Made by a program: the position numbers and the translations under genes
The notes under the pieces: model-generated
The model's input: only the letters and a program-made list of their open reading frames with translations
What the model was told of the DNA's origin: nothing
The model's database searches: none
Assembly: GCA_023205875.1 (NCBI GenBank)
Contig: CP060754.1
Location: 558,001 to 622,000 of the forward strand
Reading direction: 5' to 3'
Length of the DNA stretch: 64,000 nt
DNA from: Chloropicon primus
Lineage: Eukaryota
In this document: positions 6,647-15,618 of the stretch, in pieces
Layout of the letters: each line of letters opens with the position of its first letter
Numbering within the stretch: position 1 is the stretch's first letter

Positions 6647-8116
6647 CTAACCCGCCGCGTTCTCCCTCTTTGCGACCAGTTGCTCCAAGGACATGGCGGC
6701 GTGGTGAACGAATGCGGGCTTGATCCAGAACACATGGGACATCACAATCACAACTGCCTGGTAATCGATGTGAAGTGCCCGCGACCATTCCCCGTAGGCA
6801 GCGTATTGACCTCCTCCCGGAACACCCTTCCTCCCGGTGCTTGCCGGGGCCTCTGCAGCACGTTCGTGTTCACTCGCCTTTTGCCCCATATCGTCTGCCC
6901 ACATCTCCTGCCTGGCAAGCCCTTTCAACACTGCGTGAACTGACATGAATAGGTTGTGGACCTCCTCAGTTTTTACGTTGCCCCTGAGGAAATCCGCGTA
7001 CAAGGCGAGGTCTTCCTTGGGCATGGCCACGGTGTCCACCGCCAGCCAAGTTCTGTTCTCCGCCTCCTTCGCTTCCATGTTCCCTTTGGCCCAGCCCACC
7101 CAGGACTCCACAGGCGTTTTCTCGGCCTTCCTCCCGTCGAGGCCGTAGAGCAGCTTGAGGGTCACGAGGACGAGGCCTAAAACGAAGGGATAGGGGCTCC
7201 CCCGAAACGACGTCCCGCCGTGGGCATGCGTCTTGGTCTCGTGTTGGTACACCTGAAAGTACACGTCGGCTTCGGCCGGAAGATAAGAGTGGAGCCTGTG
7301 CACATGCAGCGCGATGTCCAGGGGCAGATTGAGCTCAAAAAGAATCCTCGTCACGAGGCCGCCGACATTTATGACGGGCTTTGGGAGGGACAGGGCCGCG
7401 GACACCTCCACGCACTCGTTCATCATCTTGGTCGCTATCGCTACGACGTTTACCCGGATCACGTGCGGGTTCTTGGGAAAGGGCAGTCTCATCGTCAAGA
7501 TAGCGATCACCAGGTCGATGGGCATGACTGGCTCCCTGAGAATCAGCAGCCCTAGCATCAGTATCGCCAGCGACTTCTCGGGCGGGAACTCCTCCTCCAT
7601 CTTGCTTGTCAACTCTCTGAACAGACTCTCCTTGTTGCCCGAAGAGTCCTCCACACTCGTTGCCTCGTTCAGTTTGGCCACGTTCTCGCTGAGGTCCAGG
7701 AGCCTCGTCCAAATCCTTCGGACGACGGGCGACAGCGCGTCCTGGCACTTGAACATCCGACCAGCGGCCTCGCTCTGCTTCACCAACAACGCCTGGAGCC
7801 TCTCCAGGTGACCGGTCGCGCCTCCACTGCTTGCGTCGAGATTTTCCTCCCACGCAGCTTCCCGCTCCGCCCCCTCCAATTCATACTTTGTCGGAGCCTT
7901 CGGTTGGCTCAGGTGCACCCTACGGACAGCACCGCGCTGCGGTCTAACGGTCTGGGACTCGGGGGCTTCCGTCTGAGTCTCCTGGAAGTCCTGGGCCTGG
8001 GTTCCGCAGTTGGTGCAGGCGAGGTAGCCCGCCACGACGTTGAAGTCCGAGCACCCACAAACGATACAGCTCTGCGTCCCATAGTCGTCCCCGGCCGCAT
8101 ACCCGCCCTGGTTCAT
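6647..8116 (-). CDS. TAF1B: TAF1B/Rrn7-like RNA polymerase I initiation factor subunit
   Basis: N-terminal Zn ribbon CIVCGCSDFNVVAGYLACTNCGTQ. Later SLAILMLGLLILREPVMPIDLV matches the cyclin-fold segment of Rrn7/TAF1B. ATG taken at 8116. Confidence 0.7.
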   Translation of the reverse strand: MNQGGYAAGDDYGTQSCIVCGCSDFNVVAGYLACTNCGTQAQDFQETQTEAPESQTVRPQRGAVRRVHLSQPKAPTKYELEGAEREAAWEENLDASSGGATGHLERLQALLVKQSEAAGRMFKCQDALSPVVRRIWTRLLDLSENVAKLNEATSVEDSSGNKESLFRELTSKMEEEFPPEKSLAILMLGLLILREPVMPIDLVIAILTMRLPFPKNPHVIRVNVVAIATKMMNECVEVSAALSLPKPVINVGGLVTRILFELNLPLDIALHVHRLHSYLPAEADVYFQVYQHETKTHAHGGTSFRGSPYPFVLGLVLVTLKLLYGLDGRKAEKTPVESWVGWAKGNMEAKEAENRTWLAVDTVAMPKEDLALYADFLRGNVKTEEVHNLFMSVHAVLKGLARQEMWADDMGQKASEHERAAEAPASTGRKGVPGGGQYAAYGEWSRALHIDYQAVVIVMSHVFWIKPAFVHHAAMSLEQLVAKRENAAG

Positions 8117-8457
8117 TCGGAACCGAACGGAACCGAACGGAACCTCTCTCCCTCCCCCGCCCTTCCCCTTTGCTTTGCTCTCCGTCGAATTGAGGGGGGG
8201 CTCTTTCCCGGCGGGGCGTGCCAATGGTGGGAGGATCCCGGTGAAACGTCGTTGTCTTCAAAAGGTTAATGTAGACTACCTTGTCGATCGAAAAGAATGC
8301 TTGCTTTTTGCTTTTTATTGGTTTTATTGGAACGACCCGTGTGCGTCTGCTTGAGCACCCGCACGTCAAAGTTTGTTCGTGGTGCCTGCCGGCGAGCCCC
8401 GCTTCTGTCCTTCTCCGAAAGCAAAGTGGTTCAGAAAACGGTTCCCACAGTGGACGC

Positions 8458-9027
8458 TCACCCCATGATCTTTCCGACGATGTGCAAGAAAGTCACCACA
8501 CCGATGAGGCTCAAGCTCAAGCCCAGAACCACGAGCTGAGGAGGAGGAAAAGGACAGAGCGTTGTTGGAAAGTTAGAAATGGTTGGATCCTTTCGAGTGG
8601 AGCGGAAGAAAGGGTCGCCACTTTCGCGGGACTCGAACGGGGACTGGTTCACTCACCGGACTGATCTTGATTCCCTCCATGGACTGCTGGATCACCTGCC
8701 TCTGCCTCGTAGGGCCTGAGGAAGCCGAAAGAAAAACACGAAGAAGAAAGGAGAGGAAGAGGAACGCGTCAGAAGAAAGACCCGAGCGGAGCGAGAAAAA
8801 ATCCTGCGACCCGTGTCCGAAATGGGAGCGGACACGGCGGGGCTACGCAACCCTTTCGCCCCTCCCCCCGTTCGCCTCCCACTCCCCATTAGGTCACCTC
8901 ACTCACCCTGCCTCATTCCTCTTCTTCCCGCTGGCGCTGGCCTGGCCGCGCCCGTTCTCTGTCCCGCGGCGCCTCCGCCCCTCTGGATGTTCTGCGAAGC
9001 TTGCGAAGATGAACTTCCCTTTGGCAT
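8458..9027 (-). CDS. SEC61B: Protein translocon subunit Sec61-beta; introns 8716-8906 and 8536-8656
   Basis: Spliced product: Gly/Arg-rich N-terminus, then GIKISP|LVVLGLSLSLIGVVTFLHIVGKIMG*. Both donors GTGAGT. Confidence 0.85.
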
Positions 9028-9030
9028 CGT

Positions 9031-9072
<42 letters not shown>

Positions 9073-9163
9073 CTCTCGTCGGTGCCGGTGCTCTTCTCTC
9101 GGATTTTTTTCTTTTCTAGCCGCAACGGGAGGAGAGGAGGAGGCTGGTGGTGTGACGTCGTAG

Positions 9164-9287
9164 ATGGTGGCAGGGATCCGGGTTGCGACGCCCCGTGGTG
9201 TGGGAGGGTGTTTGGTAGTGCCGGGGTCACGCGCTGCCATCACCAGGAGGAAGTGGACGGTGGCATCAACCCGATCATCTTCTTCAG

Positions 9288-9366
<79 letters not shown>

Positions 9367-9559
9367 GTCTAAGAAGTCGTCGGAGAAGCAGCGCGCCCCT
9401 CCGGATGGGGAGTACTTCAGAGGGATGATCACGTCCCCCTTAAAAGAGGAAGACCTCGAGAGGGACATGGTGACGCCGACTCTCAAGTTCGTCACGCGAG
9501 CTGGAGTCGTCTTGGTCCTGCTGGTTCTCGGGTTCATGAAGTCCAATAATCTTTTGTAA
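9164..9559 (+). CDS. Small hypothetical single-TM protein, probably plastid-targeted, with a poly-Ser tract
   Basis: Transit-peptide-like start; C-terminal hydrophobic helix [16 protein letters not shown]; stop codon lies within TGTAA. Confidence 0.6.
9290..9364 (+). repeat. (TCA)25 trinucleotide microsatellite encoding poly-Ser
   Basis: Uninterrupted TCA run read directly from the sequence. Confidence 0.95.
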
Positions 9560-9591
9560 ATATACTGCAAGTTGTTGTTGTGTACAATTGC

Positions 9592-11895
9592 TTACTTCAA
9601 AAGCTCCTCCAGCGTTCCCATCTTCGTAATGCTGCACACGCTCTTCAGAAGGCCGCACGCAACAAGGGCTGCAGATCCCTCTCCCAAACGCATACCCATG
9701 GTCAGCGCAGGGAGGGGAGGGAGGGGAAGACCGCTGGCCTCGGCCACCTTTGCAATGGCGGTCAGAGCAATTTTATGACCGGGCTCCGAGGTCACCAGGT
9801 CGGGAAAGAAAAGCACGCGGATGCACAGGGGGCTGATGTGACTCGCGATGAGCGCTGCAACAGTGCAAATGTATCCGTCCACCAAAACTGGCACGCTCTT
9901 CTCTGATGCCTCCAAGATGCTTCCAACGAGTGCACACAGCTCGGCGCCACCGAAGCGTGCGAGGAGTGCTGTCGGACCCCCCGTTCGAACGCCGCCGCTT
10001 TGCGAGGACAGAGCTTTCCGAACAATGCCAACCTTCTTGGCAATGGCCTTCTTTGAGATTTCCCTTCCAACCGTTGCCCCCACTCCGCAGGCTTCCTTGG
10101 GGTCACAGCCTGTCAAAGCACAGAGGAGCAGGGAGGAGATCGTCGTGTTGCCTATTCCAATCTCGCCCAAGAGGATCAAGTCATGCTGCTGTGCTAACGC
10201 CTCTCTGACCTTGGTCCTTCCCACCTCCATCAGCTTGAACACTTCCCCGCTGGTCATGGCATGGCCCCTGCAGCAGTTTCGCGTGCCTTCCCTCAACTTG
10301 AACGAAACCTCTGCTTTCGCATCACTCGGCGGGTCTCCACGGCCCTCGCTGACCCCCACGTCCACGACCTTCAGGTCCACATTGTTTGCTTTGGCCAAGA
10401 CCGGAGCTGCTGTCAGCCCAGTGTTGAGACCTTTCAAAATGCTCCTGGTCACCTCCTGGGGGAAGCCAGAGCACCCCTCCCCGCCCCTCGCCTCGCTCTT
10501 CGCCACCCCATGGTCGGCGCAAAAGATGATGAGCACCGGAGAGCGTATGGAAGGGGTAGGTGATTTCTGCAAGGCTGCTAACCGCGCGCACCAGTCCTCA
10601 AGAGTGCCTAACGAACCCACGGGCTTGCATTTGCGATCCAGCTCTTCAGTCATTGCTTCATACATGTCCGCAAAGTCACCTTCCAATGCAAGGGCCTCGC
10701 CCCCTTTCGCGGAGACGCTGGTCCCCCCCCTCTTCTTCGAAGTGAGCTCCCTTTGGAACACATCGGGGGGGCCAACAGCAGCACACCAAAGGCACAAAAA
10801 CAGACTGGCGAGGGCGAGTCTATACACCGCCCCTTCGCTCTCCATGATGAGCCAAAGGCCCCGGTCACCCGTCACGAGGTCTCTGAGATCCCAGCGCCCC
10901 TCCAAAACCTTCATGGCGATCCCCTCCAGACTGGCCCTTGCCAGAATCGTCGTGAACGCCACAAGCTCCGCCACGCATATTGTTGCCCCGAGGTAGTCCC
11001 CCAAAACTCCTCCCAAGAGGTACCTCGCGTACCTGCCAGATAGCCACGCGGTCAGAAAGACGGCGGCGAGCAGGAGCCAAGTCCAGACCCCGCTCCCGTA
11101 ACAGAGGACGCCCACGGCCACCGTGTAGAGGCTGGCGAAGCTCACCCTTCCAAGAGTCACGAGCTCCTTGGCCCTGAGCATGAAGCCATAGAACCTGTGC
11201 TTCGGGCCACCTTCGTCGACGTAAGGGTTCGTGGCCAGAAGGTATGGGGCCGTCCATCTCGCGGCAGCGTGTGCCACGACAAGGGCCGGTCCAGCCCCGC
11301 TGCAGTCCATCCACGCCCAACGAGAATTTCCGAGAGAAGAGAGGAGCTCGAGCTTTGCCACCACGTAGAGCACGAGCGTGGCGCAGCCGTAAGTCCCGAG
11401 CCTCGTGTCGCTCATAATTTTGAGGATCTGGCTCTTGCTCCAACCACCTCCTATGCCATCGGCGGAGTCCGCGAGCCCATCCTCGTGAAAGCACCCTGTC
11501 ATCCAGAAGGAGAACCCGGTGGAGATCGCCGCTGAGACGGTGGCTGGAAGGGCCAAAAAGTCCACGGCGAAATCAAACCAAACGCTGACGAACAGGCCCA
11601 CTATGCTCCCGGCGAGGGGGAAGTACGCCATCCCCCGCATGAGGTAACCCGGGTGGTGGTCGACCCAAGTGGGGGCAGGCAGGCGAGTGATGAACGTCCA
11701 GACCGTGAAAAACGCCCTAATCTCCGCCCTGAGACCTGAGCTCCCCCCCTCCCCACGGAGGAAGTCGGAGATCTCCTTGTCCACATCGCTCGACCCGCGC
11801 GTGCCCTGGCCCCGTGCCTCAACTGTCCCCCTCTCCAGCACCGACGTGTCCTTCTCCTGGACCCCCTCCCTCCTGATCCCGTTGTTCACGGCCAT
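9592..11895 (-). CDS. cobS-cobT: Fused cobalamin (5'-phosphate) synthase CobS + nicotinate-nucleotide:dimethylbenzimidazole phosphoribosyltransferase CobT
   Basis: Single intronless ORF. CobS motifs: FITRLP, YFPLAG, GCFHEDGLADSADG, ILKIMSDTRLGTYG, GGVLGDYLGA. CobT motifs: KPVGSLGTLE, FCADHGV, GEIGIGNTT, FGGAEL, VLVDGYI, SEPGH, GMRLGEGSAA. Confidence 0.93.
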   Translation of the reverse strand: MAVNNGIRREGVQEKDTSVLERGTVEARGQGTRGSSDVDKEISDFLRGEGGSSGLRAEIRAFFTVWTFITRLPAPTWVDHHPGYLMRGMAYFPLAGSIVGLFVSVWFDFAVDFLALPATVSAAISTGFSFWMTGCFHEDGLADSADGIGGGWSKSQILKIMSDTRLGTYGCATLVLYVVAKLELLSSLGNSRWAWMDCSGAGPALVVAHAAARWTAPYLLATNPYVDEGGPKHRFYGFMLRAKELVTLGRVSFASLYTVAVGVLCYGSGVWTWLLLAAVFLTAWLSGRYARYLLGGVLGDYLGATICVAELVAFTTILARASLEGIAMKVLEGRWDLRDLVTGDRGLWLIMESEGAVYRLALASLFLCLWCAAVGPPDVFQRELTSKKRGGTSVSAKGGEALALEGDFADMYEAMTEELDRKCKPVGSLGTLEDWCARLAALQKSPTPSIRSPVLIIFCADHGVAKSEARGGEGCSGFPQEVTRSILKGLNTGLTAAPVLAKANNVDLKVVDVGVSEGRGDPPSDAKAEVSFKLREGTRNCCRGHAMTSGEVFKLMEVGRTKVREALAQQHDLILLGEIGIGNTTISSLLLCALTGCDPKEACGVGATVGREISKKAIAKKVGIVRKALSSQSGGVRTGGPTALLARFGGAELCALVGSILEASEKSVPVLVDGYICTVAALIASHISPLCIRVLFFPDLVTSEPGHKIALTAIAKVAEASGLPLPPLPALTMGMRLGEGSAALVACGLLKSVCSITKMGTLEELLK

Positions 11896-12095
11896 CGCCT
11901 CGCCTCGCCCATGCCATGATCTCTCTGTCACATGAACAAACCAAACCACCAATGATCAGGAGAGGGAGGGAGGGGAGCCAGGGCAAGGACAGCTCCCAGG
12001 AGGGGCTCTTTGATCCCATGCCAACAACGGCTCGTCTGCTTGATGAAAACGACCTCCCGTGGCCCCCTCACACAACTAATGTGATATACGATAGA

Positions 12096-12837
12096 TTACA
12101 ACTTGGGCAGCAGGGGAACTCGGAACAGGAAGCAGGCACTGCTTATGGCGAGAGCAAAGTAGGAGATGCTGCCCAAGACATTGATGAGGAAGACGGTCAA
12201 ACCAAATGCAAGCGTCCTCTTCACTCTGAATTTCGCCTGCAGAAAGTTGACAAACTTCTCGAACAGGGGCGACGCCGCGACGGCAATCGAGGCTCTGATT
12301 GGCCTCAGCAGGTTTCCAAACGATAGGTAAAGGCCTCCGTAGATCCCCAAGAACGCTTTCCAGTTGCCAGCGGCGAGCGGACTGAGGCCCGTCGTTTGGC
12401 CGCAGATGACCCACGCAATTGTGATGAGCGTGCCTGGCGGGAAACAACAGGTTCGATTCGATTCGGTGAGTTGAAGAAAAAGGTGAGACGGGAAGGATGG
12501 TGTACTTACAAGCATTGACGTTCGACACGAATCCGTACGACAGGAGTACGCTTGCTCCGAGCGATGCGATCTTCTTGCGGTCCAGCCCCTTGCCCTTCTT
12601 GAAGAATGAAACCAGCTTCGCTCGAAATGAGCCCTCCTCTTCCCCTTGGTTGAACCGAAAGCTCACCCTCCCCACGCCGTTCCTAAAGGAAGCCGAGCCG
12701 CGACACGACACCTGCCTCGAACATCCGTGAGGTCGGGACCTCCCAAGTGCGACGACGCCCTGGCCTCCCTGAAACCCCGCTCGCGTCCACCAAGGGGTAG
12801 CCCTCCCCTTCGTCGTCGTCCCTGGCGAGAGCCTCAT
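12096..12837 (-). CDS. Hypothetical plastid-type membrane protein; intron 12434-12509
   Basis: GTAAGT..CAG splice joins LSYGFVSNVNA|CTLITIAW...GLSPLAAGNW...LRPIRASIAVAASP; several hydrophobic helices. Confidence 0.65.
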
Positions 12838-12925
12838 CCTCTTCCTCTCTGGCAAGATCCAAAGACAAGATCCAGACAAGATCTCTTGTGGCCAGGGAGG
12901 CGAGTCGAGAGAGAGAGGGAGCAGC

Positions 12926-14453
12926 ATGGCACGGTGTGGGCGAGGAGGTGTTTGGGGGGGGAGGGGCACGACGGGAGGGACCCACGAGAGGGGTTCGACC
13001 CGACGAGTCGCGAGCGCTCGCGCGTGGTCGAAGGCGGAGGGCGAGAGGGGAGCCCCGAACCGGCATGGCGACAAGGCTATGACGGGCAGCCTGAGGGAGA
13101 GGCTGGGGAAGTTCGCGTGCTCGGTGGCGTGCGCGCTTGTGGTGGGTCAGGGTACCGTCGTCGCGCCAAGCCTGGCCGTGAGACTGACCCCGGAGGAGAA
13201 GAACACGGTCAGCGTCTTTCAGAAGGCGAAGGAGGGCGTGGTGTTCATCACCAACCTCACAAACAGGCAGGATCTGTTCACTCTCGACCTCAAGGAGATC
13301 CCGCAGGGAGCGGGGTCGGGGTTCGTTTGGGATGATCAGGGCCACATCGTGACGAACTTCCACGTGATCAAGGGGGCGAGCGACGTCCAGATCACGTTCC
13401 AGGACCAAAAAGTGAAGCACGGGCGGGTCGTGGGCTACGACGAGGACAGGGACATCGCTATCCTGCAGGTGGACGAGGAGGCCCTGGATGCCGGGTCAAG
13501 GAGCGTGGAAGCCGACACCGTTGGACTGGGGTTGGGGCCCCCCGCTTCGATCAAGGGCGACAAGGCGAGAGGCGGCACCAACAGCGGTGCGGAAGCGCAG
13601 AAGGGTGGGCTTGGGGGAAACGCGGACGGGATCGCCAAGCCTCTCCCCAGGGGCAGCTCGGAGCTGCTCGTGGTGGGCCAGAGGGTCTACGCGATAGGGA
13701 ACCCCTTCGGTCTGGACCACACCCTGACGCAAGGCATCGTGTCTGGTCTCGGGAGAGAGATCACAAGCGGCACGGGTCGGCCGATATACGACGTGATCCA
13801 GACTGACGCAGCGATCAACCCGGGAAACTCAGGTGGCCCACTGCTCGATTCTGAGGGGAACGTGGTCGGCATCAACACTGCGATCTACAGCAGCACCGGG
13901 ACGAGCGCGGGGGTGGGTTTCGCGATCCCCATCGACCCGATCAACTTGTTCGTGGATCAGATCCTGAAATACGGCAGAGTGACCCAGCCCATTTTGGGCA
14001 TCTCCTTTGCCCCTGACCAACTCGTGGATGAACTGGGCATCGAAGGGATCCTGGTCTTGAACGCCATTGAGGGCGGCCCCGCCTCGAAGGCAGGCATGCA
14101 GGCCACCACAAGGGACTCGTTTGGCCGATTGGTTCTCGGAGACATCGTCGTGGGAATCAATGGAACGGAGTGCAAAAACTCCTCCGATTTGTACAGAGTG
14201 TTAAACAAGTTAGCGGTGGGGGATGTCGTTTCGCTGAGCATTATCCGAGGCAACTCGAAGCAGGCGATTGACGTGACGCTGATGGACAGCAACACGGTGA
14301 TACCTCGAATCAGTTTACAGGTATGATGGCAAAATCGTGCGATCGCATTCTCTTCTGAACCTCCCACTGACAAGGATTCTTCTTTCTTTCTTTTCCGTTC
14401 AGAGCGCCCTCACCGCCGAGGACCTGGGGGACTTCGGCGACGACGAGCCCTAA
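12926..14453 (+). CDS. DEG1: Deg/HtrA serine protease, chloroplast DEG1-like; intron 14321-14402
   Basis: Triad motifs TNFHVI, DRDIAIL and TDAAINPGNSGGPL; C-terminal PDZ; lumenal-type signal region. Last exon SALTAEDLGDFGDDEP*. Confidence 0.9.
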
Positions 14454-14496
14454 GCGCTCCCCTTCGTAATGTATCCTTTTTTCTTTCCTTTTGGCA

Positions 14497-15618
14497 TCAA
14501 CTCTTTACCGTGCGAGAGCCAATAATCATCTTTATCCGCTGCACCATGAAGAGGATCCAGGCGAGCGGGTTGGCGTAGCCCAAGATCGTCATCAAACTCT
14601 CGAGCGGAAGAAAGGACGTTTTGAGCTCCTTTGCCCGCCTCTGCGCCTTCGCTGCCCTCTGTTTCCTTCCCTGTATGCTTGGGAATCCGCTCCTTCTTGA
14701 CGTCAACGGCACCCGGCTACTTTGTTGTTGCGTGACGGGTGGCATCACCGGCTCGCTCTCGTCGATCACGATTGGCTTCGAGCTACTACTGCTTACGCTC
14801 GGGGTCGGTGACTGCTCGATTATCCCCTTCTTCTGAAGGTCTTGCACCAAGATCTTGGGAAGGTCGCTCGCCTTGCTCTCCGCTCTGCTGCTCTCCTTCG
14901 CCCCCGTGAGAGGATGGATGTCAGACACTTCCCCTGTGGTCCAGTCGTACGTGTAAAGCGCGCTCCCATCCGAGCGAATCAAGCGCATCTTCACCCCAGT
15001 GTCGCCACCCGTGTTCCCCGCGCGTATCAGAGACTTTTGGCTCAACTTCCTCCGCTCTGACACGACCAAGACCCTGAATATGTTGTCCAGGGGGTGCTCC
15101 CTCGAGGTGATTCCCGTCTCCTTGGAGTAGAAGTGCGCTCCCTGCGCCTCGTCGTCCCTCTCCTCCCAGCCGTAGGGCAGTGGGGCTATCACGCACTGCC
15201 TCGCAATCCACAGCAAGCTCTGCTCCTTCCTTGTGTCGATGCCGAGGTACCTGGCCATCTCCACAATCTCTTCTCGTGAGACGAGGTCCGCTATCACTGC
15301 CTTGAAGGCGTGGAAAAGTCCCTTGTACTCCACATCGCACGGATGGTCGTACTGGGCCTTTCCCGTGTCGTTGTTCAGGTACAAGACGTCGCCTTTGTGG
15401 TCCTCCACCTCTTTCCAACCATCTGGCAAGGGAGCCAAAAGGGCTTGCTCCGCTATCCAAAGAAGCTCCCCATCTTGCCCCGGCCGCAAGCCCAGGTACT
15501 CGGCGTAGTCCGAAACTTCCTGAACCGTGGGCTCTCCCTTTCCTTCCTCTACTTCCTCCTTCCCGCTCTCCTCCTCTCTTTTGTCCCCCTCCGTGGCCAT
15601 GACCTCCGTCCTTTCCAT
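14497..15618 (-). CDS. Protein with two tandem CEP164-type N-terminal/WW modules
   Basis: Two copies of E(V/I)xxxAxYLG...LLWIAxQxxxAPLPxGWxExxD...Y.....TG.....HPxD. Confidence 0.75.
   Translation of the reverse strand: MERTEVMATEGDKREEESGKEEVEEGKGEPTVQEVSDYAEYLGLRPGQDGELLWIAEQALLAPLPDGWKEVEDHKGDVLYLNNDTGKAQYDHPCDVEYKGLFHAFKAVIADLVSREEIVEMARYLGIDTRKEQSLLWIARQCVIAPLPYGWEERDDEAQGAHFYSKETGITSREHPLDNIFRVLVVSERRKLSQKSLIRAGNTGGDTGVKMRLIRSDGSALYTYDWTTGEVSDIHPLTGAKESSRAESKASDLPKILVQDLQKKGIIEQSPTPSVSSSSSKPIVIDESEPVMPPVTQQQSSRVPLTSRRSGFPSIQGRKQRAAKAQRRAKELKTSFLPLESLMTILGYANPLAWILFMVQRIKMIIGSRTVKS

Follow-up and report, generated by a model that had tools for sequence, protein, structure and literature searches.

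A transcribed CobS-CobT fusion gene of Chloropicon primus and its candidate role in vitamin B12 remodelling

Does the picoalga Chloropicon primus carry a genuine eukaryotic fusion of the cobamide enzymes CobS and CobT, and, if so, what would a single protein of this kind do in an alga? The question arises from a 64,000-nucleotide stretch of contig CP060754.1 (positions 558,001 to 622,000 of the forward strand; referred to as the window, with positions counted from its first letter), in which a first-pass annotation made from the sequence alone had noted both domains in one open reading frame (ORF) and had proposed a role in exchanging the lower ligand of vitamin B12. The locus is concluded to hold a real, expressed and widespread fusion of two known enzymes that is apparently undescribed, and the protein it encodes is a candidate enzyme for the remodelling of pseudocobalamin.

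The gene, its transcript and its setting

The fusion gene occupies 9592..11895 of the minus strand as a single intronless ORF of 767 aa, the size first estimated, with an ATG at 11895, a TAA at 9592 and zero internal stops. An upstream TTG at 11952 was ruled out as the start, since an RNA-like contig begins at 11904 and homologues start with MAVNN; proteins with this same start occur in both of the two nearest homologue clusters.

One sequencing run (X1) yields a 2347-nt contig that corresponds to 9558-11904 with zero gaps or mismatches and begins 9 bases 5' of the ATG, and a run of a separate study (X2) yields a contig at 9542-11402 that bridges the CobS/CobT junction. GT-AG introns of neighbouring genes are removed from the X1 and X2 contigs at four places; the RNA nature of the runs is deduced from these spliced neighbours, as their records merely presume RNA. 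Runs X3 and X4 provide fragments only over the locus; X5 gives a chance piece of 45 bases, and X6 has no match to the locus. Gap-free RNA-like contigs from two studies span the junction, as expected of one mRNA rather than two, and the CobS-CobT gene is transcribed as a single transcript; the contigs, from four runs aligned to 8000-14500, do not define transcript ends or levels.

The neighbouring genes are eukaryotic housekeeping genes (Rrn7, FANCE, VHS-GAT and Utp14) that support the algal context assigned at the outset, and the GC3 of the fusion (0.73) is near that of its neighbours (0.76-0.86). Among the 100 frames of at least 200 aa scanned in the window, no other B12 gene was found, nor were CbiZ, CbiR or CobU.

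Domain architecture of the fusion protein

Both halves are recognised by the profiles of their Pfam families. The CobS (cobamide-5'-phosphate synthase) domain (aa 66-313; 10957..11700, minus strand) matches PF02654 with an E of 2e-41 and 142.8 bits (gathering score 23.2), and the CobT (NaMN:DMB phosphoribosyltransferase) domain (aa 410-763; 9607..10668, minus strand) matches PF02277 (DBI_PRT) with an E of 2e-82 and 277 bits (gathering score 22.6). The profile check suggested by the first-pass annotation thus identifies both families and a complete CobT domain, originally drawn at about 10670-9592; the CobS domain, drawn at about 11730-10880, likewise stands, except that it ends near 10930-10960 and not at 10880. 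On the NCBIfam equivalog models, which are built for and tuned to prokaryotes, both halves score below the curated cut-offs (CobS, TIGR00317, 103.6 versus 110; CobT, TIGR03160, 271 versus 319.3).

The CobS half includes seven predicted membrane helices and the residues typical of the family. The loop-2 motif HxDxxxDxxD (H137, D139, D143 and D146; 11458..11487, minus strand) and the loop-6 motif GxxGDxxG (G296-G303; 10987..11010, minus strand), both as defined in the available part of PMC8092220, are conserved in 74-76 and 77 of 77 aligned rows, respectively, and the conserved Met and Arg that close loop 2 are present (M161 and R165). Residues described in that source as essential in Salmonella CobS (D82, D86, D89 and G232) are conserved in 74-77 of the 77 rows. 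Polytopic membrane character is indicated by hydropathy and by the model helices, and the topology itself is deduced by counting helices against the Salmonella cytoplasmic loops 2, 4 and 6. The mean identity of the CobS half is 57%, compared to 46% for the CobT half. An AlphaFold model from 77 sequences has a mean pLDDT of 87 and a pTM of 0.58; fold searches returned matches to CobT only, with a best Z of 6.4 for the CobS half.

Past the CobS profile lies an eighth, eukaryote-specific hydrophobic helix (aa 354-374; 10774..10836, minus strand), which is indicated by hydropathy, the model and a comparison of CobS tails and has W-C-x-x-V-G-x-P at its end. The helix had been recognised previously as an element of the linker; its existence holds, whereas its assignment to the linker does not, as it is part of eukaryotic CobS. 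At a KD of at least 1.2, a further hydrophobic stretch is detected in nearly all fusions (74 of 75), in every long-tailed split half (45 of 45) and in most eukaryotic CobS proteins of the outgroup (33 of 37); at a KD of 1.5, the counts are 67, 39 and 20, respectively. By contrast, the sampled prokaryotic CobS proteins are without the eighth helix, and all 45 complete ones terminate no more than 10 residues from the end of the profile. A helix specific to the fusion linker is ruled out, since stand-alone eukaryotic CobS proteins have it in common. In the topology deduced from the helix count, the seventh helix is predicted to end outside and the eighth to return the chain to the catalytic (cytosolic) face, placing CobT there; Lys/Arg (positive-inside) counts give moderate support only for this topology. 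The eighth helix can be inferred to have made the CobS-to-CobT fusion workable. The flexible linker (aa 389-407; 10675..10731, minus strand) ranges from 23 to 148 aa in length across relatives, with a mean identity of 12%, and is disordered in the model at aa 390-399 (pLDDT <50).

The CobT half aligns with the structure of Salmonella CobT (1d0s) with a Z of 44 and an rmsd of 2.0 over 330 residues, and the CobT fold is retrieved by Foldseek with an E of 3e-20. The catalytic Glu of Salmonella (E317) has its equivalent in E739, and Salmonella E174 has its equivalent in E578. Of these, E739 is within the RLGEG motif (aa 736-740; 9676..9690, minus strand), which is retained as originally noted, aligns with the Salmonella motif and keeps its Glu in every one of the 101 fusion rows. 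The CobT of bacteria is a homodimer with a shared active site.

The base pocket has hydrophobic residues, as in DMB-selective enzymes. F478 and I486 (10438..10464, minus strand) occupy the positions of Salmonella S80 and Q88, based on alignment to 4kqj (on which the numbering was checked), and a pair of F/Y plus V/I is found in 101 of 101 fusion rows. Hydrophobic residues at these positions lower adenine activation, and the Propionibacterium freudenreichii F/V enzyme does not activate adenine, according to the available text of PMC4657239. Judged from its residues, the F478/I486 pocket appears to resemble those of adenine-excluding enzymes. Such a pocket fits a remodelling enzyme but is no marker of one, because most sampled bacterial rows are hydrophobic too, just 5/87 and 1/80 bacterial CobT rows departing from an aromatic-plus-hydrophobic pair.

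CobS (EC 2.7.8.26) and CobT (EC 2.4.2.21) of Salmonella enterica share with the fusion the Pfam families, the loop-2 and loop-6 motifs, the CobT fold and the catalytic Glu; however, these proteins are separate, function in de novo synthesis and have S80 and Q88 where the fusion has F and I. Like the fusion, the COBT (Cre12.g555500) and COBS (Cre01.g036950) of Chlamydomonas reinhardtii and the COBT and COBS of Pavlova (Diacronema) lutheri are eukaryotic remodelling genes, but they are separate. The CobS of D. lutheri, which also bears the extra helix, groups with the fusions in a common clade of eukaryotic CobS proteins but lies outside the fusion clade. In the BluB/CobT2 of P. freudenreichii, CobT is fused to a neighbouring pathway step and has an F/V pocket that excludes adenine (PMC4657239, available text); this fusion is bacterial and its partner is a soluble upstream DMB synthase, whereas the partner in the algal fusion is a downstream membrane enzyme. 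The CobS of Vibrio cholerae, while unfused, sets a precedent for CobS-dependent remodelling without CbiZ (PMC7733943, available text).

Distribution and evolutionary history

A search with the full-length protein gave 137 matches, 120 of which are listed; 74 of these 120 are full fusions (more than 60% of both domains covered) and a further 33 cover both domains partially, with CobS before CobT in every fused match listed. Named carriers include Chloropicon, Micromonas pusilla and the diatoms Fragilaria, Nitzschia, Seminavis, Cyclotella, Stephanocyclus and Tryblionella; the closest named homologue among the matches listed is Chloropicon WZN61495.1 (57% identity). Metagenome contigs have both domains in one stop-free frame at 26 of 63 loci. 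The fusion was found at none of the best 80 of at least 575 loci of prokaryotic genomes. Both genes are present at 51 of these 80, in the order cobT-cobS at 42, in the order cobS-cobT at 2 and on opposite strands at 7; a rare bacterial fusion may exist beyond these best 80. A search for viral relatives produced 7 pattern matches, 0 of them confirmed.

The architecture, regarded earlier as unusual, is thus widespread in green picoalgae and many diatoms and not peculiar to one alga; what stands of that view is that no description of a CobS-CobT fusion was found in the literature searched (mostly outside subscription journals). In the algal-B12 papers searched for 'fusion' and 'fused', neither word ever refers to CobS-CobT, and the main text of the C. 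primus genome paper mentions neither cobS nor cobT. Public annotations already show both domains.

Separate phylogenies of the two halves, as proposed in the first-pass annotation, both recover a single clade of all fusions, with a support of 98 in the CobS tree (FastTree, 208 rows) and 98 in the CobT tree (FastTree, 224 of 303 rows, bacterial-like rows thinned); IQ-TREE on hand-picked subsets concurs (support of 99 for 41 rows and 100 for 47 rows). Outside this clade are the stand-alone CobS proteins of Diacronema, Pavlovales, Prorocentrum, Hondaea, Pyropia and Discosporangium and the stand-alone CobT proteins of Discosporangium and Micractinium; these proteins nevertheless group with the fusions against the sampled prokaryotes. 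Nested inside the clade are stand-alone halves of Skeletonema, Thalassiosira exigua, Discostella, Cyclostephanos and Mediolabrus. Such re-splits are considered genuine because real stop codons with no partner nearby are seen at loci L092, L093, L102-L104, L118, L124 and L125, and a divergent pair of split halves at L106. The sequence comparisons suggest, as the simplest reading, one fusion event inside eukaryotes, followed by a patchy spread among green algae and diatoms and by later fissions. An AU test of whole fusions does not reject a grouping of Chloropicon-like and Micromonas proteins that was named after the trees had been viewed (p-AU 0.071). Transfer between green algae and diatoms may have run either way, as this grouping of green rows is not rejected and bacterial sampling is thin.

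Certain algal gene models are shorter than the fusion. Fragilariopsis cylindrus OEU20787.1, of 356 aa, shares 99% identity with residues 428-783 of fusions in the same cluster that are 783 aa long; it starts at a Met just ahead of the CobT domain and may be the id 180280 of PMC4850488. The gene model of M. pusilla CCMP1545 likewise begins within CobS. In the available parts of Helliwell 2016 (PMC4850488, Table S1 and Data S2), F. cylindrus and Phaeodactylum tricornutum are scored as CobT-positive and CobS-negative; a P. tricornutum sequence was not found among the named matches. Based on such comparisons, the published diatoms with 'CobT without CobS', and with them part of the excess of COBT over COBS, may be truncated gene models.

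Proposed function and competing explanations

The preferred reading, with a probability of roughly 0.6, is that the fusion is a membrane-tethered enzyme that remodels pseudocobalamin in two steps, swapping the adenine tail of imported cyanobacterial pseudo-B12 for DMB and so yielding B12 that the alga can use. The CobT half would make alpha-ribazole-5'-phosphate from scavenged DMB and NaMN, with the hydrophobic F478/I486 pocket disfavouring adenine, so that pseudo-B12 would not be remade. Helix 8 would bring the chain to the catalytic-loop face of CobS and keep CobT on a flexible tether by the CobS site, with the tether providing co-expression and a high local concentration and no rigid tunnel. 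CobS would then join the ribotide to the corrin by direct exchange on pseudocobalamin, after which an unlinked phosphatase would take off the 5'-phosphate and the cobalamin would be used by METH. In C. primus, METH is present and METE is absent, as reported in section 3.6 of PMC12458973.

The remodelling role that had been put forward for this locus is supported by a CobT knockout of Chlamydomonas and by the predicted DMB-selective type of the pocket. In the available text of a 2026 preprint (bioRxiv 10.64898/2026.08.07.738727), C. reinhardtii loses remodelling when COBT is knocked out; COBT is described as needed by a mechanism that is unknown, and the essentiality of COBS is doubted since COBT looks commoner. 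A COBS knockout screen reported there gave no mutants, and its authors suggest that COBS may be non-essential. Confidence in the remodelling role is tempered by this empty screen, by the scores of both halves under the NCBIfam cut-offs and by the linkage of cobU in two lineages.

The CobS of V. cholerae is said to catalyse direct exchange on pseudocobalamin. By analogy, an exchange of this type is tentatively taken, at slightly less than even odds, as the likelier route in the alga compared to one via cobinamide-GDP, because P. tricornutum remodels (bioRxiv 10.64898/2026.08.07.738727) without CobU and CbiB/CbiZ (bioRxiv 2020.01.24.918219), C. reinhardtii is without CbiZ and CbiR (PMC7733943) and V. 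cholerae remodelling involves CobS (PMC7733943), as far as the available parts of these sources go. The argument made initially for exchange, that no activating gene is in the window, is weak because eukaryotic genes need no linkage and cobU adjoins these genes in two diatom-like lineages.

Ordinary nucleotide-loop assembly, in which CobS would have no exchange activity and B12 would be finished from cobinamide-GDP supplied by a CobU encoded elsewhere, following either cobinamide salvage or cleavage of the CbiZ/CbiR type, is unlikely but credible. It is the textbook CobS reaction (PMC8092220), and HGT-derived CobU and CbiB-CbiZ are described from diatoms (bioRxiv 2020.01.24.918219), both in the available texts. 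CobU-DUF4346 is encoded head-to-head with the fusion at loci L126, L113 and L111 and 2-5 kb from a stand-alone CobT at L118, L124 and L125, which fits a cobinamide-GDP route in these two diatom-like lineages. However, CobU is found at just 6 of 57 eukaryote-type loci (L081-L137, most of them short) and in two lineages, P. tricornutum remodels without CobU and CbiB/CbiZ, and C. reinhardtii has neither CbiZ nor CbiR; the failure to find cobU among frames of at least 200 aa in the window also counts against this route but says little about the genome.

Substrate channelling had been suggested in the first-pass annotation. Improbable is true channelling, in which CobT would dock rigidly on CobS and hand over the ribotide directly, the fusion having been selected for that purpose. 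Its retention across green picoalgae and diatoms, the membrane-anchored CobS/CobT complex proposed for bacteria (PMC8092220, available text) and the BluB/CobT2 precedent (PMC4657239, available text) would agree with such a handover; however, rigid docking is made unlikely by the variable, poorly conserved linker and by repeated splits that include the divergent pair at L106. The linker is also of low pLDDT, the pTM is 0.58 despite the mean pLDDT of 87 and the proven remodellers C. reinhardtii and P. lutheri have separate genes (PMC4850488, available text).

More doubtful still is that only the CobT half matters, with CobS a membrane anchor or relic and the exchange performed by another enzyme. 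While algae are reported to have COBT more often than COBS and the COBS screen gave no mutant (bioRxiv 10.64898/2026.08.07.738727, available text), the CobS half is the better conserved of the two, its catalytic Asp residues are near-invariant and the 'CobT-only' model of F. cylindrus matches full fusions at 99% over their C-terminal half. Bacterial contamination, or a merger of two genes by assembly or annotation, could be suspected of an intronless ORF from two mostly prokaryotic families but is refuted by the spanning RNA-like contigs, the eukaryotic neighbours of similar GC3, the lack of fused loci among the best 80 of at least 575 in prokaryotes and the intron-like frame breaks at shared positions of diatom-like homologues.

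The remodelling reading has consequences for how B12 use by algae is understood. The conserved CobS-CobT fusion argues that both steps work together, and the truncated-looking model of F. cylindrus undercuts part of the doubt over COBS. In a bolder form, which is conceivable though rather doubtful, the fusion alone would account for algal remodelling, as a DMB-selective transesterase, encoded by one gene, that converts pseudo-B12 to B12 at the membrane without a cobinamide intermediate. It would have a single origin in eukaryotes and have passed between green picoalgae and diatoms, and truncated models would hide its CobS half, so that P. tricornutum and other 'CobT-only' remodellers would carry the fusion too. 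If true, B12 remodelling in ocean phytoplankton would be traceable by a single marker, and the gene alone would serve as a portable tool. Because the halves of one gene can be mutated separately, the question of algal remodelling is open to direct test. In parts of the ocean B12 limits phytoplankton, and a marker of remodelling bears on the competition between cyanobacteria and eukaryotic algae.

Termini of fused and stand-alone forms

Most fusions (48-62 of 77 rows) carry the conserved motif T-V-L-x-x-G-x-V-E-x-R-G and E-I-x-x-F-L N-terminal to CobS; in C. primus this motif occupies aa 17-42 (window 11770-11847). Inspection by eye revealed no evident signal or transit peptide at the fusion N-terminus. 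Simple-sequence tracts of (GAT)n and (GA)n lie 3' of the fusion gene (window 9290-9365 and 9030-9080), in a stretch without contig cover. Judging from aligned homologs, the reference gene models of F. cylindrus (OEU20787.1, P0442, vs P0443-P0454) and M. pusilla (P0156 vs P0160) look like N-terminally truncated fusion pieces, in which CobS is wholly or partly hidden.

Stand-alone eukaryotic CobS proteins (e.g., P0211, P0232, P0243, L132:5734-7062 and L134:2676-3824) end in a cysteine directly after the extra hydrophobic helix in 27 of 37 cases, most often preceded by Glu or Asp. This cysteine, absent from fused and re-split forms, could be guessed to serve as a lipidation site or cobalt ligand.

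Adjacent genes and fission

Separate cobS and cobT genes are immediately adjacent in several eukaryotes, including tail-to-tail pairs (loci L132 and L134-L137) and the protein pairs P0243/P0313 and P0177/P0300; adjacency is based on consecutive protein ids in Skeletonema and on source contigs of equal size in Discosporangium. Such neighbours possibly represent the state before or after fusion. For both Skeletonema and T. exigua, single-domain trees place the split CobS with one fused subgroup and the split CobT with another, a pattern suggestive of fission via duplication and reciprocal loss.

Other fusions and the salvage cluster

Prokaryotic CobT is joined, on either side, to a nitroreductase (BluB-like) domain at L001, L003, L023 and L030, a fusion type already known. 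In two diatom-like lineages, a eukaryotic CobU-DUF4346 fusion protein (L126:4442-5644, minus strand; L118:12201-13240; L124:9320-10411; further loci L113, L111 and L125) adjoins the cobS/cobT genes, with which it forms a small B12 salvage cluster.
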